A stretch of 64,000 bases of DNA from Patescibacteria group bacterium (lineage in GTDB: Bacteria; Patescibacteriota; Patescibacteriia; Buchananbacterales; UBA6539), in assembly GCA_041662625.1 (NCBI GenBank), contig JBAZSB010000001.1:791710-855709 (forward strand), in the 5' to 3' direction. The translations under genes and the position numbers were made by a program. Below, one piece after another: positions 2,957-39,142 of this stretch; position 1 is the stretch's first letter, and each line of letters begins with the position of its first letter. A model generated the notes under the pieces. The model was not told the DNA's origin, did no database searches, and saw nothing but the letters and a program-made list of their open reading frames with translations.

Positions 2957-5347
2957 TTACTTGGCCACAAACGCACTGGTCCAGTCAGGCAAAGCTGGAG
3001 CTTGGTTGTTATCAACCATCCCCCGCCACTTTTCATCAGTTAACCGGTCAGTAATCGGCCAAGAAAATTCATAGTAAGAGAAAACCCCGCCTTTAGCAAT
3101 TCGCAATTTACCTTCAACTGGCACGACAGCATAAATATCATAAATTCGGCCAGTGCCTTCTTCCAAAACCTGACCAGCCGGATCGGAGGCAACATCAGCC
3201 ACTAAAGCAGCCGGCTCTTGATAAATTTGGCTTGGACTTTCAATACCTAAATCTTTATAAGCTTCCAGCCATAAGTGTTCCAGGCTGCCACCATAAGTCC
3301 GGATAAAATCATAATCATCATCGCTCAAAGCCTGATTACTTAATTCTTTTTCCGAAATATCTTTTAACCGTGAAACTAAAATTTCCAGGCGGTCTAAAAA
3401 CTCAGTACTATTTTCGGAAAGCAAACTCCGCAGCTGCAAACCTTCTTTCATCATTTTGGTTAAAGCTGCCAGGCGGGCGTAAACATAAACATTGGGCTCA
3501 ACATAACCCCGATCATCTTTTTGATCAGGCGAGCCGCCGCCAAGTTCGGCATAAACCTGCTTAGCATATAAAATCGTGTCATGTTTTAATTCAGTCCAGT
3601 TGGCTAAGAAAGTATTCATATCCTTTTTCTGCCAGGCAACATTAGTCATAAAGCTGGGATAACCCTGAGTCTTTTCCGCCAAAAGTGGTCGAAGCGAATA
3701 AAGCCAACCCCAGTATAAATTCTGCGTCCAGGTTTTACCATCAAGACTAGCGACATATTGCCGCATCTTATTGGAATTTTCCACATAACAGGCATAAGCG
3801 GTTTCGCCTTTGTCTTCCTGGAGTTTAGCCGCCACGTTTGAGCCAAAAGCTGAAACTACATCCAGACCAGAAGGGAGGCGGCGCGACTGTTCCGGCACCC
3901 AGGTCGTGGGGTCAGAATCACAAGTATGATCTTTGTCACCGACCTCGCGATAAACCAGACGCTGGAAAATATCCGCATCCAAAGTATAACGCTGGCCCAT
4001 GAAACGAAAACCTTTAATTGCTGCCGTTCGGTCAGGCTGGAACCGGGCATCCAAAATCGGCATTGAATTAATTTTCGGTCCAGCTAAATTGGCCGCTTGG
4101 GTCAAAAGGCCTTGAAATTTAGCTTCATCATATAAATCCGTTAAAGTATAATCCGCACCATAGCTATCAGTTATCAATTTGCCATAATCATTAAAGGTTA
4201 AATCATCAGCCAAGCCAACAAAGAAAGCAGTTGGTTCATAAATTTTATCCCACAAATTCTTTAACGCTTCAGAATTTTGCAGCGCTTGGGTAATTAGCAC
4301 TGCTGAGCGGGTTTCATCTTCGGACTTCAAGCGAAAAGTCAGCCGACCCAAATACATCATCGATTTGAAATAAATTTTTAAATCATCGGTTCGGGTGTAA
4401 TGGCCGCGGGGAATATATTGGGTGTAATCTTCTAAATTATATTGGGCCGGATCAGTCACACCAAGATTCATCACCGGCGAAGGCATGCCGACTTGGGTCT
4501 GACCTTCAATTAGCGCCAATTCATCAGTAACTTCTTTAGCAACATAGCTGGCGGGCTCAGCACTGGGATAAACCAATTTATTTGCCACGGCGAAAAAAGC
4601 TACGTTGCGCTTGGCGGCATTTTCCCAGGGTGTGCCTTGCAACTGCTCATATTGCTCCTGACTGGCCTGAACCATCCCATAAGTCAGTTCGGTTAAAACT
4701 TGCTTTAATTTGTCAGTTTCCAAGGTACGGAGTAAAAAATCAAAAGCTAAATGATAATTATGTAAAATCGAGTCAGTGGTAATAAAGCTTGGCGTAAAAC
4801 TATAACGATTACTTTCATATATGCTGAAAAATTCCTGGGAGTACCCGGGGACGACCGCAAAGCCATTTTGACTCAAAAGGTTTTTTGCTGAATCAGAAAG
4901 CGTAAAATCACTTTTATTTTCTACATTACTTAAATCCGCGGCCACTTGATAGGCTGAAACGGTCGGCACGACATTGACGGCTGGCTCGGTAAAAATTGCA
5001 AACTCATTGGCCTCAGCAATCGGAGCGCCAATTAAATTACTGATGGCTTCAATCAAAGTTTTGACTGGCTCAGGCGGTGGGGTTTGATTAGTATTTTGAT
5101 TAGTGTTGACCGGCGCAGACTTAGGCGCGAAAAACTGTAGGTAAACAAAAAAGCCGCCACCCCCAGCTAAAGCTAAAACAACCAAAATCGCCGCTAAAAT
5201 TCCGGCTGAAGTGATTTTGCCGGTGGTCTTTATCTTCGGCTTAGGTGGCTTGGACACTGACGGGCCGAAAGGTGAAACCGGCGGTGTTTGGGGTTGATTT
5301 GACGAAGGATTAATTGAGGATTGAGGTGGAGTTTGATTTTCAAACAT
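2957..5347 (-). CDS. large extracellular protein with N-terminal Pro-rich linker and TM anchor, function unknown
   Basis: 796-aa ORF; N-terminus 'PPQSSINPSSNQPQTPPVSPFGPSVSKPPKPK' followed by hydrophobic helix; no recognisable catalytic motif. Confidence 0.5.
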   Translation of the reverse strand: MFENQTPPQSSINPSSNQPQTPPVSPFGPSVSKPPKPKIKTTGKITSAGILAAILVVLALAGGGGFFVYLQFFAPKSAPVNTNQNTNQTPPPEPVKTLIEAISNLIGAPIAEANEFAIFTEPAVNVVPTVSAYQVAADLSNVENKSDFTLSDSAKNLLSQNGFAVVPGYSQEFFSIYESNRYSFTPSFITTDSILHNYHLAFDFLLRTLETDKLKQVLTELTYGMVQASQEQYEQLQGTPWENAAKRNVAFFAVANKLVYPSAEPASYVAKEVTDELALIEGQTQVGMPSPVMNLGVTDPAQYNLEDYTQYIPRGHYTRTDDLKIYFKSMMYLGRLTFRLKSEDETRSAVLITQALQNSEALKNLWDKIYEPTAFFVGLADDLTFNDYGKLITDSYGADYTLTDLYDEAKFQGLLTQAANLAGPKINSMPILDARFQPDRTAAIKGFRFMGQRYTLDADIFQRLVYREVGDKDHTCDSDPTTWVPEQSRRLPSGLDVVSAFGSNVAAKLQEDKGETAYACYVENSNKMRQYVASLDGKTWTQNLYWGWLYSLRPLLAEKTQGYPSFMTNVAWQKKDMNTFLANWTELKHDTILYAKQVYAELGGGSPDQKDDRGYVEPNVYVYARLAALTKMMKEGLQLRSLLSENSTEFLDRLEILVSRLKDISEKELSNQALSDDDYDFIRTYGGSLEHLWLEAYKDLGIESPSQIYQEPAALVADVASDPAGQVLEEGTGRIYDIYAVVPVEGKLRIAKGGVFSYYEFSWPITDRLTDEKWRGMVDNNQAPALPDWTSAFVAK

Positions 5348-5380: not shown

Positions 5381-7066
5381 TTATAATTTCCCTGAACCTT
5401 TGGGATTATATCCTTTTAGAACTTCCGCTCCGTCCAGATAACTATCACCGTCAGTGTCAGGATTATTTTTATCGGTACCATACTTTTCTTCAGAATAATT
5501 GGCTAAACCATCTTTATCTGGGTCCAGACAGACCTCTCTTAACACAAACTCGGCGCCATCGTTTTGGGGATAAATTCCCGAAGGAGTGGCATAATTCTTG
5601 CCGGCTTTAAGATTGCCCACATCTTGGCTAATACTAAATTCGATAACATAATCGTTGTCCGCACATGAGTAATAAAGATAATCTGCTACTGGCGAGTTGG
5701 GGTGGGCGGGTAATAAAGCCATGTAGGTATTACCTGTACAGGTAGTCCCCAGCTGACTGAATCCTCCCTCGCTCAGACAGGTTGTATCAACTCCCAAACG
5801 ATTACCACCTACTGGCGGTAAAGGATAATTCATAAAATCATTAAAATATAATTCTAAGGCAGTTTGGGTTTGTTTAACATCAGCAATAGTTTTAGCATCA
5901 CTTGCCTTCTCCCGACTAGTTTCTAGGGCAGTACCCATCATTGAATCCATTAATTCCTTAAAAGACATCGCGTTGGTTGGTTCATCAATTTTAATCGGCT
6001 GATTATAATTGGTTAACACAATAGTACTTTTAACCTCACTACTATAATTTGGGTCATTCATTAATAAATTAGCTACTGCCTTTTTTATAATCCTGCCCTT
6101 TTTGGCAATCCAAATTTCGCCGGAAAAATCAAGTTTAGCCAATACTTCATCCAGACTCTTCAACTGATCTTCAAGATTAAGATTATAATCTTTATCTAAT
6201 CCCTCCTGTTTAGATAATTCATCCAAAGCGGTGATAAACTTTTTGAAAGCTTCTTTGTCTAAAGTTATCGCGTAATGATAACTAGCAGCATTATCAATTG
6301 TTTCACTTTTTAATTTCTGCCACTTAAAAAAACTGTTCTTTTTATACACATCAGTAAATTTTTGTAAAAAATCTTTAACTTTAGCGGAATCGTTCTCAGC
6401 TGACGGCTTGATCTTTAGGCCATACTGCGCTTGCAATTCCTGAAAATTAATTTTTATCCATTGATTATTAATTTTGCTCGCATCAAAAAAAGGCAATACT
6501 GGTATACCTTCAATTTTGGCGTATAAATTTTCTTTATCAACGGACACAATACTTATCTTTGGGCTATAAGTCATCTGCCCAACTAGAGGAATCTGCGTCC
6601 CAGCCGGGATATCAATATTTATTTCCGAGGCAGTTTGAACAAAATCATTATTTTTTGCGAAATTAATTGTCGCTGCAGCTGAAAGATTAAATTCCTGGGG
6701 CATAAGAAGCGAAAGCGAAGTTGCGGCTGAAGGCTGATTTGCTTGATTTGATAGACTTGGCTTCATCGAAATGCTAATTTCGTAATCCAACTTACCAGAA
6801 TCCAATTTAGTCAAATTTTTGATAGCATCTTCAAATACCTTTTCCGGTGCTAGATAAATGTTAGAGTAATAATAAAAAGCTCCCGCCCCCGCTGCCATTA
6901 AAAATATAAACCCGGCAACAATAGCAATAATCAAGCCTTTCTTACTTGATTTGCCTTCTGGTGCCAAAGGTTGTGGCATATTTGATGAAAAACTTTGTAA
7001 TTGCCGACCATTTAAATACTGATTCTCTGTAGGTTGATTGGGTCTAAAATTTTGGTCATTAAACAT
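5381..7066 (-). CDS. membrane-anchored extracellular protein with pseudopilin-like segment and thrombospondin-type-3-like Ca-binding repeats
   Basis: N-terminal TM helix; 'TQTALELYFNDFMNYPLPP' resembles GspG-type pseudopilin globular domain; C-terminus 'DPDKDGLANYSEEKYGTDKNNPDTDGDSYLDGAE' DxDxDG repeats. Confidence 0.5.
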   Translation of the reverse strand: MFNDQNFRPNQPTENQYLNGRQLQSFSSNMPQPLAPEGKSSKKGLIIAIVAGFIFLMAAGAGAFYYYSNIYLAPEKVFEDAIKNLTKLDSGKLDYEISISMKPSLSNQANQPSAATSLSLLMPQEFNLSAAATINFAKNNDFVQTASEINIDIPAGTQIPLVGQMTYSPKISIVSVDKENLYAKIEGIPVLPFFDASKINNQWIKINFQELQAQYGLKIKPSAENDSAKVKDFLQKFTDVYKKNSFFKWQKLKSETIDNAASYHYAITLDKEAFKKFITALDELSKQEGLDKDYNLNLEDQLKSLDEVLAKLDFSGEIWIAKKGRIIKKAVANLLMNDPNYSSEVKSTIVLTNYNQPIKIDEPTNAMSFKELMDSMMGTALETSREKASDAKTIADVKQTQTALELYFNDFMNYPLPPVGGNRLGVDTTCLSEGGFSQLGTTCTGNTYMALLPAHPNSPVADYLYYSCADNDYVIEFSISQDVGNLKAGKNYATPSGIYPQNDGAEFVLREVCLDPDKDGLANYSEEKYGTDKNNPDTDGDSYLDGAEVLKGYNPKGSGKL

Positions 7067-11214: not shown

Positions 11215-12264
11215 ATGGATACATCGGTTTACGCCGCCTTTGCAGACGGCACAAGAGTTGAAGAAAAGGTCCTCAGAGTACTAAAGAGGTTCGCGCCCGA
11301 CGGGCACCTCGACGTCCTGGCCTGCGACCAGGACAACTCGTTCCGCTCGATGTTGAAGAAGTTCCACACCAACTGCCGGGCCGCGGGCGGCAGAACCGAG
11401 GATTATCCGGAAGTTCCGGAGGATTTGCATGTAACCATTCTCAGCCGGCTGCTGGCGAGGACATTGGGCCGCGGCCATCACGCCGCCTTGTTCAACCAGC
11501 TTGGCTTCAAGAAAGGCGGGTTCCGCGAGGACCTGGGCGAGGAAACAATGTTGCTCGGCCGTCTCGAGAACACCAAGTTCGCCGATGGACCGGACGGCGG
11601 GCAAGTTGCCCAACTGGCCATCGAGCCTGAAGAAGCCGACCCGTACGTCGACGGTTTCAAGACGCTGGTCAAGGTCGATCCGGCCAAGCCGGCGAGTTGG
11701 GAGGCCAATCTTGCGTGGCTGCGCGACGTTGACGCGCGGTGCAAGGCACTCGGCAAACCGCTATTTAACGAGACCTTGTACACGCCGCCGGCCGATGTCT
11801 CCAAACTCGTGATGGCCCAGAACTTACCCGGCGCCCTGCTGAAAATCGCCCTCGCCTTCGGTCCCTTTGGCACCTTTTACAAAACCCAGGTGCCACTGGC
11901 ATGGGTCGAAGGCGTCGCGGTCGGCCATTCCGGCGGTATCAGAACCAACATCGGCTTCATGGCTGAGCTCATCAAACGCCCGCTGTTGATCCTATCGGCA
12001 GCAGTCGACTTCGACCAGTACGCGCTGCAATTCGCGTCGATTGCCGATTTGGCCGTCGGGCCGATGTGCGGACGGGCCTATTTCAAAGACCCGTTCAGCG
12101 ACCCGGCCGTGAGCAACTGGGAACTGCTCGAGCACGCCATCGCCGAAATCGCCCTGCCGCGCATGAAACTGATCCGCGGCATGATGCAAAATGTCGGCCG
12201 ACCCTGGTGGGCGGACTTCAAGGAAGTATCGCCGGCGGCGAAAACGCTGCTCGGCCTCAGCTAG
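11215..12264 (+). CDS. class I aldolase of the LacD/DUF2090 family (tagatose-1,6-bisphosphate-aldolase-like), GC-rich
   Basis: 'VLACDQDNSFRSML' resembles LacD 'ALAFDQRGALKRMM'; C-terminal 'GPMCGRAYF' resembles LacD 'GVLCGRATW'; strong RBS GGAGGAGG; high GC3. Confidence 0.5.
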   Translation: MDTSVYAAFADGTRVEEKVLRVLKRFAPDGHLDVLACDQDNSFRSMLKKFHTNCRAAGGRTEDYPEVPEDLHVTILSRLLARTLGRGHHAALFNQLGFKKGGFREDLGEETMLLGRLENTKFADGPDGGQVAQLAIEPEEADPYVDGFKTLVKVDPAKPASWEANLAWLRDVDARCKALGKPLFNETLYTPPADVSKLVMAQNLPGALLKIALAFGPFGTFYKTQVPLAWVEGVAVGHSGGIRTNIGFMAELIKRPLLILSAAVDFDQYALQFASIADLAVGPMCGRAYFKDPFSDPAVSNWELLEHAIAEIALPRMKLIRGMMQNVGRPWWADFKEVSPAAKTLLGLS

Positions 12265-15525: not shown

Positions 15526-15951
15526 CTACTCTTTGGCGGGTTCGCTGTCGGCCTTGGCTGGATTGTGCATATTCTGCCGAACGGTACCGGATTGGTCGAC
15601 ATAGAAGAAGCGATTGCCCGTCTCGCTATCAGCTACGGGTTCGGCCGTGGCAGCAAAGTTGTCGCCGCTACCCGTCAGATCGAACTTGTAGCCCCTCTTT
15701 TGTGCTACCTGATTCCCATCGAGGAACGGCGGCGTAGCCGCAGTTAGCTCTTCGAGAGTGCTGGCGTACTTGCCGTTGGTGGACTTGAAAGCCTGTTGGG
15801 CCCCAACGACGGCACGCAGACTGCCGATCGCAGCGGCTTCATTCGATTGCATCCGCGACCGGAGCAGGTTGGGGATCGCGATCGCCGCGATGATCGCAAT
15901 AATCGCAACAACAATCATCAACTCAATCAGTGTGAACCCGTTCTTTCTCAT
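15526..15951 (-). CDS. type IV pilin / pseudopilin (prepilin-type N-terminal cleavage-methylation domain), GC-rich
   Basis: 'MRKNGFTLIELMIVVAIIAIIAAIAIP' class-III signal peptide; RBS GGAGGA; high GC3. Confidence 0.8.
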   Translation of the reverse strand: MRKNGFTLIELMIVVAIIAIIAAIAIPNLLRSRMQSNEAAAIGSLRAVVGAQQAFKSTNGKYASTLEELTAATPPFLDGNQVAQKRGYKFDLTGSGDNFAATAEPVADSETGNRFFYVDQSGTVRQNMHNPAKADSEPAKE

Positions 15952-19831: not shown

Positions 19832-19870
19832 CCACCACCCAAACTTCACAACACAGAGAAGGGAGAATTG

Positions 19871-21148
19871 ATGATGACACAAAGCCCCATAGACATCCGC
19901 CGCTCTTTCGGAGCGGGAATCGGTGGCGCCACCTTTGGTGACGATACCGCCGAGTATCTGTTCGGCCGAATCAAACGGCTCCGCCTGAAGTTTCAAATCG
20001 AACATCCGGACATCACAGTGCTAAACTTCGGCATTGGCGAACCGTATAACGGTCCGGATCATATCGTGCGGGAAGCGGCTGTAACGGCTATCCGCGATTC
20101 CCGGTTTGACGGGTACCCGGACCTTGGTTTGGCTAAACTAAGAGAAGCAGCGGCTTCTCATTTCCAAACCGTCTTCGGACTAAGCTACCAGCTCGACCCG
20201 GAAACCCATGTCCAGGACTGTTGGGGAATCAAGCCTAGCCTTGACGCCTTAACCAAGGTGTTCTGCTCTCCCGGCAATCAGGAGTGGCCGGTTGCGCGAA
20301 TCCAGGTCGCGGTGACTACACCAGGCTACCCGGTTTTTGGCACCCAGGCCGCCAAACTCGGCGCCCAAGTTATCACCATGCCAGTGACCAGAGAAAACGG
20401 TTACCTACCGGACATCTCGGTTCTGGAGAAAGCCGCGCACCTTCACGCCATCTACCTGATTAGTCCGCACAATCCGACTGGCCGAGCCTACGATACCGAG
20501 GCTGGCTGGTGGCAGAAAGTCGTGGACTTCTGCCGCGAGAGAAGTGTCGCGTTGATCGTCGATGAAGCCTACTGCCATCTGCGCTGGGCGCCGGGCAAGC
20601 CGTTCACCGCTCTGTCTATTCCGGGTTTCATGGATGTCGGCGTTGTTTTGCACTCCGTCTCCAAAACCTTGGACTGGACCAGCGGCCGCATCGGCTGGGT
20701 GGTCGGCAATCCGATGATTATCCGGGCATACCGGAAAGAGTACGAAGACTCTTCTTCTGGCCAAACCCTGGCTCTGCAATGGGCCGCGGCAGAAGCGCTG
20801 AACAACTTCGGCTTGATCGTACCTAAAATCCAAGCCGACTATCGGCGGCGGCTGGAGGGACTGATCAAGATACTCCAAAGCCGGGGCTTCCCCGTTCAAA
20901 TGCCCGACGGCGGGTTCTTCATCTTCAGTCCGGCGCCGACGTATTGCGGCGGTCAGACTATTGCCGATGCCGAGGAGTTCATGCAGTACCTACTGAATGA
21001 GCACGGCATCGTCAGCGTTCCTTTCGGCGACCATATCCGGTTCGCCAGCACAGTCAAAGTCGGCGGTCCAGGCCAGCCGGCAACATACGAACGGGCACTA
21101 GAAATGCTCAACGAACGCCTGCCTGAAGTGTTCCAATTCAAATCGTAA
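19871..21148 (+). CDS. class I/II aminotransferase (LL-diaminopimelate-aminotransferase-like), GC-rich
   Basis: 'LNFGIGEPY', PLP lysine region 'HSVSKTLDWTSGRIGWVVGN'; RBS AAGGGAG; 36 nt downstream of the decarboxylase (operon). Confidence 0.8.
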   Translation: MMTQSPIDIRRSFGAGIGGATFGDDTAEYLFGRIKRLRLKFQIEHPDITVLNFGIGEPYNGPDHIVREAAVTAIRDSRFDGYPDLGLAKLREAAASHFQTVFGLSYQLDPETHVQDCWGIKPSLDALTKVFCSPGNQEWPVARIQVAVTTPGYPVFGTQAAKLGAQVITMPVTRENGYLPDISVLEKAAHLHAIYLISPHNPTGRAYDTEAGWWQKVVDFCRERSVALIVDEAYCHLRWAPGKPFTALSIPGFMDVGVVLHSVSKTLDWTSGRIGWVVGNPMIIRAYRKEYEDSSSGQTLALQWAAAEALNNFGLIVPKIQADYRRRLEGLIKILQSRGFPVQMPDGGFFIFSPAPTYCGGQTIADAEEFMQYLLNEHGIVSVPFGDHIRFASTVKVGGPGQPATYERALEMLNERLPEVFQFKS

Positions 21149-22746: not shown

Positions 22747-22864
22747 TTGAGATAAATTGACATATCAAAAAAAATCTGTTAAGGTTTTGGAAACTACAGT
22801 GGAAGGAGTAGAAGTTTAACCCAAGGGAAGTACTCTACAATTGAATCGGAAGGAGAAACAACTG

Positions 22865-24586
22865 ATGGAATATGCGCAAGGAGTAACCGACCTAAGCCGA
22901 GACCAACTGCGGATCCTCCTTGAAATCGCGGGGATGATCAACACCACCGGCGATCTGAAAGGTCCCCTCTCCCAAGCACTGAGGATGGCCATTGAGGCTA
23001 TCGGCGGCGAGGAAGGCTCCATCTTGATGCTGAATCACGATGGGCTCCTAAGGATCTATGCAGCGTTAGGCATTCCCGAAGAGACTATTCGAACTGTCAA
23101 TGCGAAGGGGATCCAGCTAGGTGAAGGCTTCGCTGGCTGCGTCGCCCAGACGAATAAGCCACTGCTCTTGAATAAAGGCAATGGCCATAGCGTTCGAATC
23201 CAGTCCGCCATCTCTGTCCCGCTATCAGTAGACCATAGGGTAATCGGGGTCCTGAATGTCAGCCGAATCAAATCGGATTTACCCTTCAACGAGCTAGACT
23301 TGGCCATGCTTGTCCATGTGGCAAGGGAACTCTATCCGGTTATCGGCAAACGACGGAACCTCGAAGCCATCTACGAAGCAGCAGTCGCTTTAGCCGCCGC
23401 TACCAGTCTGCCAGAAACTATCTTCGCCATGATGGTGATGAAACAGGCTTTGCTCGTCAACGAGCTTGCTCTGTTCATAGTCGCTGGAGAATATCTGGAA
23501 GAAGTAACCAGCACGACCACTGGCCCTTCGCAGGTCAAGATTCCGCTGGCTGGAGAACCGGCAACTGACGACACGACAACGGCTGCAGTCATAATCCAAT
23601 CCCTCCGTGGGAAAAAGATGATTGTCTGCAACGAAGTGACGCCTGGAGCTAGTGACCAACGCCCATTTGCCGTTATTCCCTTCTTCGATCCGCGGCAAAA
23701 GCCAGAAGGGGCAATAGTCATCTACGGCGAAGTCGGCTGCGCGGTCACCCAGGAGGAAACCACGGTCATCCAAACCTTTGCCCGCATTGTTGCCCTGCAA
23801 ATCTCCCACCTCCAAGATATAGCGGACAAAAAACAAGGTCAGCAACGGATGGTCTTTATCCTCGCCGCCGCCTTGGAATTCCGCAGCCACTACACCGCCG
23901 GGCACTCCAACCGCGTCAGCACCTATGCCGTCGCCGTAGGGAAAAAACTCGGCCTCCGTCCCGAGGAACTCCTGCTTTTGGAGCACGGCGGGCTAATCCA
24001 CGATATCGGCAAAATCGGAATTCGCGACGAGGTCTTGGAAAAACCTGGCCAGCTCACTGTGGAAGAATGGGCCGAGATGAAACAACATCCCGATCGTGGC
24101 GTGGCGATGATTAAGGATGGCGGCGCTTTCAGTGAAGGTGTCGCGCGGTTCATCCTAAGACACCACGAACGTCCGGATGGTAAAGGTTATCCCAATGGGA
24201 TTGGTGAAGATCAGCTCACGACCGCCGAGCTCATCCTTGGGGCAGTGGACTGTTTTGATGCCATGACCTCCCGCCGTAACTACCGGCAGGAACATAAAGA
24301 CGGGATGCCGATCGAAGCCGCCATCCTGGAAATGATCCGGTGCAGCGGCACGCAGTTCAACACCCAGGTGGTCCAAGCGCTGATTAGCGCCTTGAAAGAT
24401 GGGATCCAGATCGACGAAGATGGTGGTAGCCGAACAATGCTACTTGGGCCAACCGAGTGTCAAGCCATCGCGACCGCCCTCCTTCACCGGTCAACGCCGG
24501 ATCCCAACCCAGCCGACAGGCAACAGATCAGTAGCCAAATCGCTACCCAGTTCGCGACCCTGTTTCCGTTGACAACTGCGGGCTGA
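22865..24586 (+). CDS. GAF-domain / HD-GYP-domain protein (putative c-di-GMP phosphodiesterase), GC-rich
   Basis: HD-GYP signature 'HDIGKIGIRDEVL...HHERPDGKGYPNGIGEDQ'; N-terminal GAF-like region; ATG 22865 with RBS GGAAGGAG preferred over TTG 22841. Confidence 0.8.
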   Translation: MEYAQGVTDLSRDQLRILLEIAGMINTTGDLKGPLSQALRMAIEAIGGEEGSILMLNHDGLLRIYAALGIPEETIRTVNAKGIQLGEGFAGCVAQTNKPLLLNKGNGHSVRIQSAISVPLSVDHRVIGVLNVSRIKSDLPFNELDLAMLVHVARELYPVIGKRRNLEAIYEAAVALAAATSLPETIFAMMVMKQALLVNELALFIVAGEYLEEVTSTTTGPSQVKIPLAGEPATDDTTTAAVIIQSLRGKKMIVCNEVTPGASDQRPFAVIPFFDPRQKPEGAIVIYGEVGCAVTQEETTVIQTFARIVALQISHLQDIADKKQGQQRMVFILAAALEFRSHYTAGHSNRVSTYAVAVGKKLGLRPEELLLLEHGGLIHDIGKIGIRDEVLEKPGQLTVEEWAEMKQHPDRGVAMIKDGGAFSEGVARFILRHHERPDGKGYPNGIGEDQLTTAELILGAVDCFDAMTSRRNYRQEHKDGMPIEAAILEMIRCSGTQFNTQVVQALISALKDGIQIDEDGGSRTMLLGPTECQAIATALLHRSTPDPNPADRQQISSQIATQFATLFPLTTAG

Positions 24587-37090: not shown

Positions 37091-37495
37091 ATGAGTCATA
37101 CCTGCCAAGCCATCGTTTTCCGCTGCATTGATTTCCGGATTCAATCCGGGGTCTTTGCTAAACTCCTGGCGGAAAACGGCATTTGCGCCGCTGACCAATT
37201 TGACTTGGTTTCCTTAGCTGGTGCAGCTAAAGTGTTTCTAACTGATAGCCGAGATTTACTATTGTCACAAATTGATATTTCCAGCCGGCTCCATGGCATC
37301 AAAAAAGTCGTGCTGGTGATGCACGACAATTGCGGCGCTTACGGCATTGCTGATCCGGCTGAAGAGGAAAAAATCCAAAGACAGGACTTAGCAGAAATCG
37401 CTGGTCTGATTGCGGCAAAGTTTTCCCAACTGACAGTAGAAAAATTCATTCTCCAAGGCACAGCCAGCGGTAACTTTTCACTCCTGAAAATCTAA
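37091..37495 (+). CDS. small protein with beta-carbonic-anhydrase-like Cys-x-Asp-x-Arg / His-x-x-Cys-Gly motifs
   Basis: 'FRCIDFRI' and 'VVLVMHDNCGAYG' match the two zinc-ligand motifs of beta-class CA, but only 134 aa. Confidence 0.4.
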   Translation: MSHTCQAIVFRCIDFRIQSGVFAKLLAENGICAADQFDLVSLAGAAKVFLTDSRDLLLSQIDISSRLHGIKKVVLVMHDNCGAYGIADPAEEEKIQRQDLAEIAGLIAAKFSQLTVEKFILQGTASGNFSLLKI

Positions 37496-37575
37496 ACCAG
37501 GCTGGTTTAGCTGGTTTCGACTTACTGCCAAACGGTAGGTCTTTTTTTATTAAAATTAAAAACAAAAGAAGCTAT

Positions 37576-38473
37576 TTACCAATTGCTCCTTCTGGTTCTG
37601 ATATCTAAATTATTTTTTGAAAAAGGGTGACGACGGACCAAGTCACTTCGCTTCGACTCCAAAGGAGTGAATTGAGGTGAACGGACTGGTCCGTCGTCGA
37701 TTGACTGGCTTCCGACCATCGGGAGATTTTCCTCTCCAGGTCGCTTCCGCAGGAAGCTACGTAACGATGAGCCCGAAAGCCTTCGCGTGTACGCCGGCGG
37801 CACCGAGACCCTGTACGCGTTTCTTCTGCGCGATGTCATGGCTGCCGGCCAACTTCTTCCGATTACGCGTCTCAACGATCTCAGCAAATGGTCCCATGGG
37901 TAACCTCCAATCTTTTGGGGGCTCGATGGCTCCCCACCTAGTTACGGACCTCCATGTTGGTCCGATTATTCGTATATTAACAAAAAATAATAAATTATAC
38001 AAGCCTTTTTGTTTGCCATGCCGGCCTACGAGCCGGCATCTGGGATTCTGCGACAAAACTCTGGATTCCGGATTCACATTTTAAGGCTATTATTGACAAA
38101 AAATGAGAGTTGAACTATATTGGAAAAGTGCCGCTTGGGCCGCTATAAAAAGGCCCATAGCGACCAGTGTCGCCGCGGTCAAAGCGGACAACGGCGACGT
38201 TGATCGGTCCGGACCAGGCGTGGTCCGAGGCCACAGAAGTGGAAACGAAAAGGCGACAACCTCTATAGGAGAAAAAGGTTCGGGGAATTTAAGGGTCTGA
38301 CCAGCCTCTGGCAAATCAGGTGGAATTCCTGAACAGCTAGTAGAGCAAACGTGCTCTTGCCATATTCCCCTTGCTTACTTAAAATTAGGATGAAATACTA
38401 GAGTTTAATGCCAAGGGTAAAACTAAGGCATTTTTTTATAAAAAAATATATGGCCCACAGGCCATATATTTTT
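37576..38473 (+). other. GC-rich non-coding island (about 0.85 kb) with sigma70-like promoters (TTACCA-17-TGATAT at 37576-37604; TTGACA-17-TATATT at 38094-38122) and two tandem terminators (38407-38437, 38446-38473); candidate structured ncRNA(s) or decayed acquired gene
   Basis: No ORF >135 aa on either strand despite high GC; long-range complementary segments GACGACGGACCA (37630-37641) / TGGTCCGTCGTC (37687-37698); hairpins GCTTCC-GCA-GGAAGC, ATGCCGGC-CTACGA-GCCGGCAT; I could not match tmRNA, RNase P or SRP consensus. Confidence 0.3.
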
Positions 38474-38573
38474 GGTTTTTGTTTTGGTTGTACTAAAAAG
38501 GACAACTATCTTAACGCCAAGGATTTTAGCTGCCTTAACAAGGTAAGGCAACGCTAGACTGGCGAAATAAAAA

Positions 38574-38858
38574 TTATCTCAGCTCCATATAACCCTGCCT
38601 AATTTTGTCGCTGACAAACTGTCCCGGGGTAAAAGCGACTTTTTCTTCGGTTAGTGAAACCGCCTCAGCGGCTGGCGTGGATTTTTCCAAGGCCGAAGTT
38701 GCAATACCCAAAACTAGACTGATAGCCAAGACAACAAAAAAAGCACTGATTAAACTGCCGAAAAGTCCAAAACTGGCAATTTTTTTATTCAGTACTGTCG
38801 GGTATTTGGCTATCCCAAATAAGGATAATACTTCGCGACCGGCTTGAATTGATGACAT
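38574..38858 (-). CDS. small membrane protein, hypothetical
   Basis: 94 aa with central TM helix; preceded by two strong hairpins at 38875-38937. Confidence 0.35.
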   Translation of the reverse strand: MSSIQAGREVLSLFGIAKYPTVLNKKIASFGLFGSLISAFFVVLAISLVLGIATSALEKSTPAAEAVSLTEEKVAFTPGQFVSDKIRQGYMELR

Positions 38859-39142
38859 ATTTTTGTTTTTGTCCCGATTTCTCCCAAATCTTTGATTTGG
38901 TGAGAAATCGAGGATCCCGACAGCAGTCGGGATTTTTATTTTGGGTTTTATAAAAGAGAGTACTTCTCAACTCTCTAAATACAGTATAGCACATCTAAAA
39001 AATTTTGTCAAATATTTAAATTGAAAAAATAGCTAAAATTTGCTAGAATAGAACTAGCAAAAAAGTAAGAAAATAAGAAATTAAGAAAATCAAGGCTTTA
39101 ATTTTTTAATTTCTTATTTTGTTAATTTCTTATTCTTCAACC

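Follow-up and report, generated by a model that had tools for sequence, protein, structure and literature searches.

The question posed by positions 37576-38473 of a 64,000 nt stretch of DNA from a Patescibacteria group bacterium (contig JBAZSB010000001.1 of assembly GCA_041662625.1; the whole stretch is referred to here as the window) is whether a GC-rich island that lacks a long open reading frame (ORF) encodes one large structured RNA. An earlier note on this DNA had proposed a single structured non-coding RNA (ncRNA) of approximately 0.85 kb, with an unclassified RNA or a decayed acquired gene as fallbacks. The signals within the island, together with related genomes, instead divide it into two divergent units: unit A, at around 37620-37972 on the minus strand, and unit B, with a body at 38128..38440 on the plus strand. 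From these signals, from synteny, from the correspondence of reading frames and from the absence of family matches, we infer how both units may be transcribed, translated and function. An even chance is given to the interpretation that the island is a fast-turnover spacer holding two independent divergent units, of which A would be a small, decaying or shortened protein gene and B an orphan non-coding transcript. The island is not an assembly artefact, as a 100 % identical stretch is present in four independent assemblies.

Unit A displays the components of a small protein gene in proper order and spacing, namely a promoter, a Shine–Dalgarno sequence, a start codon, an in-frame stop and a terminator, with an mRNA of approximately 350 nt predicted from these signals. 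Leftward transcription would start from a putative extended −10 promoter at 37974..38002, assigned by reading the sequence, which consists of a −35 TTGTAT (38002-37997), a 17-nt spacer and TGT-TAATAT (37982-37974); an alternative −10, TATAAT, lies at 37999-37994. The 5′ leader (37898..37972) harbours two stem–loops, CGGACC..GGTCCG at 37945-37964 and GGGG..CCCC at 37917-37935. Ribosomes would then load at a GGAGG Shine–Dalgarno sequence (37908-37904), 6 nt upstream of the ATG at 37897-37895 from which initiation is predicted. The short ORF (37757..37897) comprises 46 codons (MGPFAEIVETRNRKKLAGSHDIAQKKRVQGLGAAGVHAKAFGLIVT) and ends with a TAG at 37759-37757, beyond which the same frame continues for 37 further codons (37643..37756), to a TGA (37645-37643) in the 3′ arm of the terminator stem. 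It is to this buried TGA that the original frame, of about 84 codons, would have extended, with the TAG shortening the product in this strain to a 46-aa basic peptide. The peptide is also hydrophilic and without a membrane helix, and neither the 46-aa ORF nor the conceptual ancestral ORFs have a match in Pfam, NCBIfam or PDB.

Downstream of the TAG, a hairpin (GGAGAGG..TCTCC) plus GATGGT lies at 37715-37737, and is the motif kept in all three lineages discussed below. Transcription of unit A would end at a terminator-like hairpin (37619..37698), the stem of which is a GC-rich, perfect 12-nt inverted repeat (37629-37640/37687-37698) with a 46-nt gap, followed by ACCC-TTTTTC (37624-37619). This is the internal complementarity, 46 nt apart, that had been put forward as a long-range interaction of a large RNA; the repeat exists as described, and is the terminator stem of minus-strand unit A. 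As a separate observation, an 11-nt perfect inverted repeat composed only of A and T (ATTATTTTTTG/CAAAAAATAAT), at 37609-37619 and 37981-37991, exactly flanks unit A, with the right copy falling in the promoter spacer. This could be due to chance in AT-rich flanks, or be the trace of an insertion or inversion.

With regard to the conservation of unit A, the loci of relatives were collected via carbonic-anhydrase protein homologues and via AtpC, with 69 loci fetched in all (denoted by L numbers herein). The source lineage belongs to the Patescibacteria (candidate phyla radiation), and, of the AtpC sequences in GTDB species genomes, the closest (72 % identity) comes from a Candidatus Buchananbacteria metagenome-assembled genome. 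An architecture like that of unit A is present at the same locus, and in the same orientation, in two sister lineages, represented by L036/L067 (73 % protein identity) and L037/L038 (62 %). In L036, L037 and L067 this unit directly precedes T2, the terminator at the right edge of the island, and unit B is absent. Similarity of the L036 and L037 spacers to the window at the level of BLAST is confined to the block formed by the hairpin and GATGGT. The promoter, both leader hairpins, the GGAGG and start, the 3′ hairpin and the terminator hairpin are nevertheless all found in the sister lineages, with differing stem sequences. At the position aligned to the unit A promoter, L037 has TTGACC-17-TAAATT with TGn, and L036 has TTGAAA-17-TATGTT. 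Comparison of L036 and L037 with the window, which amounts to three distinct sequences only, reveals three pairs of the leader hairpins that are changed on both sides, and none in the 3′ block. The terminator hairpin of L037 directly precedes a T-run. Two terminator-stem pairs of L036 read as G-U on the minus strand, where the plus strand would have A-C; because these pairs are valid only on the former, the minus strand is favoured as the sense strand of unit A.

All that remains of the unit in L034 (70 % identity) is the 3′ arm of the terminator, the stop codon TGA and the T-run, and L005, the nearest species, is syntenic and has neither unit A nor unit B. Blastn and nhmmer comparison of the island with 29 syntenic, AtpC-anchored GTDB loci returned no similarity, and a search with the 135-aa plus-strand ORF, which served as a stand-in for conserved DNA, recovered only the ORF itself. 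A pattern scan for hairpin 3 gave no matches in viral contigs and 16 in JGI metagenomes, all of them chance occurrences within unrelated coding DNA. Further contigs from the L036 carbonic-anhydrase protein cluster are uninformative, since they differ by one single-nucleotide polymorphism in 1.4 kb.

Whether unit A encodes, or once encoded, a protein can be addressed by nucleotide alignment, in which the ATG frame of the window aligns with an ATG frame in L036 and an ATA-initiated frame in L037. A GGAGG precedes the aligned start (ATG, ATG and ATA in the window, L036 and L037, respectively). The frames correspond at the N-terminus, with C-(IV)-AQR, and in a middle block, where the window has KKLAGSHDIAQKKR vs EKSARRINIANRTR in L036. 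They also end at a shared TGA that lies within the 3′ arm of the terminator stem, the last residues before this stop being ..VEAK in the window, ..RREE in L036 and ..RREK in L037. Between L036 and L037, the indels of the C-terminal block sum to 3 nt, and approximately 6 of the 11 point differences are synonymous by hand count. Exactly one lesion is present in each copy of unit A: a TAG at codon 47 in the window, a TGA at codon 8 in L036 (aligned to a CGT in L037) and an ATA in place of the ATG start in L037. A conserved GGAGG with start, and a conserved stop position, would be predicted by a gene and not by a small RNA (sRNA), which lends modest support to coding. We therefore suggest, with similarly modest confidence, that unit A is a small protein gene, probably of some 52-84 codons originally, which would be dispensable and either decaying or shortened in every lineage sampled.

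Several observations weigh against this reading. The peptide sequences are barely conserved between copies of unit A, and their differences are only weakly skewed to third codon positions (5/4/7 and 4/2/4 at positions 1/2/3, by hand count). To find only one stop across 84 codons is not surprising in GC-rich DNA, and another minus-strand frame of the region is fully open. As all three copies carry a lesion, the protein may not be made. Finally, the conserved entity could be the RNA itself, the 3′ hairpins being the best-conserved part of unit A, and for this reason an RNA role stays a live alternative.

Unit B is read from the opposite strand, its promoter lying approximately 100 nt from, and divergent to, that of unit A. 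The near-consensus TTGACA-17-TATATT promoter described previously is real (11/12 match), and is located at 38093..38121, one base from where it had been placed. From this sigma-70 promoter a rightward, hairpin-rich RNA without an ORF would be driven, with a body of around 310 nt (38128..38440, approximately 50 % GC) that forms a chain of GC-rich hairpins. The transcript is predicted to be 310-345 nt long, stopping at T1 (38437) or T2 (38473). These are the two consecutive terminators reported before, of which the second (38442-38473) is strong but the first (38407..38437) is weak: T1 consists of AATGCC, a 14-nt loop, GGCATT and then T7, giving a 6-bp stem, and is not listed by the terminator scan because its loop exceeds 8 nt. 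The predicted fold of unit B (−108.6 kcal/mol, z=−3.3) has a 7-bp closing helix, GGGGAAU/AUUCCCC, and hairpins that include CGGACC..GGTCCG at 38210-38227.

There is no combination of a Shine–Dalgarno sequence and a start anywhere in unit B, a six-frame Pfam search of it found nothing, and no homologue was present in the 69 related loci, phages or plasmids, such that unit B is found in this strain only. This lack of homologues for unit B is a further point against the interpretation preferred here. The label of unclassified RNA fits unit B, given its own promoter, its terminators and the lack of an Rfam match, but fits unit A less well; a structured sRNA is a possible identity for unit B. Between the two divergent promoters lies a short spacer (38003..38092) with a GC hairpin (38017-38045) and GGATTC repeats, which has no match elsewhere. 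Short repeats of the GGATTC/GGAATCC type occur at 38040-38085 of the window (GGGATTCTGCGAC..CTGGATTCCGGATTC), and L005 contains a GTCATTCCGC..GCGGAATCCAG palindrome at 6030-6085; both resemble the repetitive extragenic palindromic (REP)-like elements of many bacteria.

The two units sit in a 1079-nt gap between a Pro_CA_2 (carbonic-anhydrase-like) gene (37091-37495, plus strand; Pfam E=7e-13), which comes after the atp operon, and a convergent gene of 94 aa (38574-38858, minus strand), which is followed by polysaccharide genes (flippase, HD-domain protein, Wzy). The left border of the variable spacer is the intrinsic terminator of the Pro_CA_2 gene (37519..37548, plus strand; from the terminator scan), which is approximately 80 % conserved in L036 and L037. 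The right border is T2 (38442..38473, listed on the plus strand), with a 14-bp perfect stem, which is common to unit B and the 94-aa gene and is bidirectional, as both an A-run and a T-run are present. T2 is 87-91 % conserved in L036, L037, L055 and L067, and the conserved terminator, TATATGGC-N4-6-GCCATATATTTTT, is usable as an anchor for the clade. Between these borders the content varies: the window has both units, L036 and L037 have only unit A, L055 has an unrelated unit, and L005 and L034 contain other sequence. The spacer is a zone of turnover, since its content differs between lineages.

Past the carbonic-anhydrase terminator, L055, L063, L061 and L006 have a TTGACA promoter at the position of the unit B promoter, and in the distant L063, L061 and L006 it precedes a second Pro_CA_2 paralogue. 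The gene for this paralogue resembles unit B in having a TTGACA promoter directly after the terminator of the first carbonic-anhydrase gene, but differs from it in that no carbonic-anhydrase remnant could be detected in any frame of unit B. The promoter of unit B, to judge from its position, occupies the slot of the lost second paralogue. Unit B as a Pro_CA_2 pseudogene was considered and rejected, since neither a profile (73 family members plus the second paralogue of L061) nor a consistent tblastn match revealed a remnant. The profile recovered its controls in L006 (5e-28) and L063 (0.009, for a 40-residue fragment), and found nothing in units A and B or the L055 unit. Taken with its promoter position, unit B may be either a young, lineage-specific sRNA or an expressed leftover in the second carbonic-anhydrase slot, and we lean slightly towards the leftover.

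Two further RNA candidates were seen in this slot. A conserved leader of approximately 85 nt lies between the promoter and the second Pro_CA_2 paralogue in L061 (2950-3060) and L006 (6030-6140), with the pattern AAAGTGC..GGGAG, a hairpin, and AAAGACT..CATGA..AAGGAGG. Rfam gives no match to this leader, which may act as a cis-regulatory RNA for the second Pro_CA_2 gene and shares nothing recognizable with unit B beyond a 9-mer. The second candidate is the L055 unit (2600-2885; likewise in L056-L060; 50 % identity), a GC-rich plus-strand unit of approximately 250 nt behind the TTGACA promoter, which carries a terminator of its own immediately ahead of T2. The core resembles a tRNA: it contains a perfect T-arm (CUGGGGUUCGAAUCCCUAG), a hairpin like a D-arm, and a loop, CUAAUAA, similar to that of an anticodon arm. 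As a tRNA it was rejected, scoring 23 bits vs the Rfam tRNA threshold of 29 and being negative by ARAGORN; it may represent a decayed tRNA or an sRNA derived from a tRNA. No convincing alignment exists between the L055 unit and unit B beyond the flanking promoter and terminator.

One sequence feature is common to units A and B, and is the only link between them. A CGGACC(A)/(T)GGTCCG stem is found in three hairpins, at 37634-37693, 37945-37964 and 38210-38227, and no others of this kind occur in the 64 kb. Two CGGACC-N-GGTCCG occurrences were obtained by scan, vs 0.03 expected, and the third is the 12-nt repeat; all are inside the island. Five of the 11 TGGTCCG heptamers in the window fall within 600 nt, and the leader hairpin of L036 has the same CGGACC/GGTCCG stem.

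How, then, do the properties that first drew attention to the island appear? The absence of any ORF above 135 aa holds for both strands over 37496-38573. High GC content applies to 37650-37950, at 57 % vs 41 % for the window, but less so to the remainder, with unit B at around 50 %. The premise that a GC-rich, ORF-free island denotes a structured RNA does not survive, as the other patches of 58-64 % GC in the window fall in the long ORFs of ordinary protein genes, a type IV pilin-like ORF at 15526-15951 (approximately 60 % GC) being one example; the heuristic is for this reason unreliable in this genome. Four long ORFs (11215-12264, 15526-15951, 19868-21148 and 22841-24586) have 55-64 % GC in a genome of 41 %, which suggests acquired or compositionally unusual genes. 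On both strands, the predicted folds of the island have greater stability than those of dinucleotide shuffles (z from −2.6 to −4.7), in agreement with the claim of structure, although fold stability against shuffles does not by itself show function.

In terms of known RNA families, both Rfam and ARAGORN agree with the impression that RNase P RNA, tmRNA, signal recognition particle RNA and 6S RNA are not matched, with tmRNA specifically absent by ARAGORN. The recommended search of Rfam yielded no significant match that would make the region a known family: at gathering thresholds, Rfam 15 identifies only four tRNAs in the whole window, all outside of the island. At E ≤ 10 over 37450-38600, the best matches are RsaH (26 bits vs a threshold of 50) and IS128 (23 vs 80), and all such sub-threshold matches sit on terminators. 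A second or diverged copy of the island, such as the template of a diversity-generating retroelement or a repeat element, was not found by blastn against the 64-kb window, which returned the self match and AT-rich noise only. Blastn of the island against phages and plasmids gave no match.

Among the explanations that compete with a small gene beside an orphan transcript, two merit extended discussion, and both are considered rather unlikely. The first is that units A and B are both structured regulatory RNAs, with the Shine–Dalgarno, ATG and ORF of unit A being incidental or only stabilizing, and the 3′ hairpins being functional. Function would then reside in GGAGRGG..CUCCC-GAUGGU and a stem that has a purine-rich internal loop, unit B would be strongly expressed, and the CGGACC/GGTCCG hairpins would bind a common factor. 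This is consistent with the better conservation of the 3′ hairpin block than of the ORF, with the retention of promoter, leader hairpins and terminator in every copy that bears an ORF lesion, with folds stabler than shuffles, and with the threefold occurrence of CGGACC-N-GGTCCG in the island alone and the clustering of TGGTCCG heptamers. Covariation, however, is minimal (three two-sided pairs in the leader and 0 in the 3′ block, among three distinct sequences) and there is no Rfam relative. A properly spaced GGAGG and start, together with the same aligned stop, would be unexpected for a pure sRNA, and unit B is present in one strain only.

The second explanation, to which we give the same low probability, is dead DNA: unit A would be a fragment of an acquired GC-rich gene of TPR_10/TPR_12 type, unit B an eroded gene from the second carbonic-anhydrase slot, and both would be functionless. 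The other minus-strand frame of unit A (WDHLLRSLRRVIGRSWPAAMTSRRRNAY...), open for at least 113 codons, gave matches to six repeat proteins of the TPR_10/12 type (E=1e-7 to 1e-3) in a search of 1.84 billion proteins, with the alignment RRVIGRSWPAAMTSRRRNAY vs ERVLGEDHPDTLTSRNNLAY. A profile of 49 repeats gives 10-13 bits, a score reached by 0 of 1000 dinucleotide shuffles and the top one in the six-frame translation of the window. Loss of unit A is evidently tolerated in L034, and the unit B promoter sits at the place of the lost paralogue. Against this, the repeat family was chosen post hoc, and summing a single weak match over many near-identical repeats inflates the E-values. The Pfam TPR models have no match at E ≤ 10, and the supposed second repeat and the equivalents in L036 and L037 score like shuffles. 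The frame has no start codon behind a Shine–Dalgarno sequence, and runs through the terminator. For unit B, the 73-protein carbonic-anhydrase profile with the L061 paralogue is blank, as it is in unit A and the L055 unit. Retention of promoter, Shine–Dalgarno, start and terminator in three lineages this distant is also unlike a long-dead fragment.

Unit A as a TPR_10/TPR_12 pseudogene was downgraded accordingly, with neither a Pfam match nor at least two tandem units of around 42 residues being found. One 28-residue stretch of its non-ATG frame does resemble the RVLGxDHPDTLTSRNNLA core of these families (PF13374, PF13424), but there is no Pfam match, second repeat or start codon, and the relatives show no resemblance. 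The left portion of the island is nearer to the fallback offered earlier, a decayed gene, than to an ncRNA, and descent from an acquired TPR-type gene is kept as a minority explanation.

A more speculative proposal, which we regard as distinctly doubtful, is that the slot hosts rapidly diversifying, strongly expressed structured RNAs within a Parcubacteria clade, including unit B and the L055 RNA. Strong promoters at the same position would drive these, the CGGACC/GGTCCG hairpins would bind a common factor, and units A and B together would form a new regulatory module.

Far less probable is a pair akin to type I toxin–antitoxin systems, in which unit A would be the source of a small toxic peptide, and unit B of an sRNA able to pair with the leader of unit A. 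The layout resembles those of tisB/istR-1 and zorO/orzO, in which an mRNA with a small ORF and a structured leader lies beside a divergently transcribed non-coding RNA. The unit A peptide is, however, basic, hydrophilic and devoid of a membrane helix, and the sister lineages L036, L037 and L067 carry unit A without unit B. No plus-strand direct repeat of at least 9 nt links the two units, and so their RNAs have no extended complementarity, by which this explanation is already largely refuted; whole-length duplex folding of the two RNAs was uninformative.

Least probable of all is the single large, ornate ncRNA of approximately 0.85 kb on the plus strand of 37576-38473, since, for all that the region is ORF-poor and the plus-strand fold of its left part has the lowest z (−4.7), an AT-rich gap with a near-consensus promoter lies mid-island, the left part bears minus-strand signals and G-U pairs valid on that strand only, relatives have the left part without the right, no large-RNA match exists in Rfam, and the proposed start promoter is weak. 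The latter, TTACCA-17-TGATAT, is indeed the sequence at 37576-37604, but it fails the promoter scan because position 2 of its −10 hexamer is not A, and it lies between two convergent terminators.

Units A and B fit no known family, and a literature search returned nothing relevant to them. The closest architectural parallels of unit A are small-ORF genes and dual-function sRNAs such as SgrS/SgrT, RNAIII/hld and SR1/SR1P. Like them, unit A would be a short, self-contained transcript equipped with a promoter, a structured leader, a Shine–Dalgarno sequence, a short ORF and an intrinsic terminator, and its RNA elements are better conserved than the peptide. It differs from these in lacking any relationship of sequence or family, and in having a broken ORF, or a lost start, in every copy. 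Abundant stand-alone sRNAs of approximately 200-300 nt with Rho-independent terminators include 6S and Ms1, and unit B is like these in its near-consensus promoter, lack of an ORF, stable hairpins and terminators, with 310-345 nt being within range. It has, however, no Rfam match to 6S, has a predicted fold made up of successive hairpins, as opposed to a rod with a central bubble, and is present in one strain, whereas housekeeping RNAs are conserved.

Were both units real, an orphan sRNA and a small protein or mRNA of restricted lineage distribution would join the very sparse catalogue of non-ribosomal RNAs and micro-proteins from the candidate phyla radiation, and the locus would mark a genomic slot with quick turnover of such elements. 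The island also serves as a caution, in that being GC-rich and ORF-free does not single out structured RNAs in this genome, and in that a single-sequence fold with a promoter and a terminator cannot tell an sRNA from a small or decaying gene.

Two further elements were observed beside the 94-aa gene. Element X (window 38858-38937, approximately 80 nt) is also present in L005 (6112-6189), L037 (around 1970-2055) and L067 (around 3860-3940), and consists of an outer helix, CGATTTCTC/GAGAAATCG, around an inner hairpin, then AGGA and a plus-strand intrinsic terminator. It is 94 % identical between the window and L005, with flanking coding DNA at 68-77 %. The inner hairpin is swapped for other pairing sequence in L037 (CCCGAC..GTCGGG) and L067 (TCCCGAT..ATCGGGA). 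The element lies 5′ of the 94-aa gene in the window and 3′ of its homologue in L005 and L067. Element X has no Rfam match, and is a candidate for a conserved small structured RNA or attenuator. Element Y (window 38948-39011; also L005 6771-6834, and L055) lies upstream of the 94-aa gene and contains a minus-strand promoter that is conserved, TTGACA-17-TATACT. This promoter directly precedes a short hairpin (AGAGAGT..ACTCTCT) with a T-run. The element shares 91 % identity with its counterpart in L005 and looks like a promoter-proximal attenuator.

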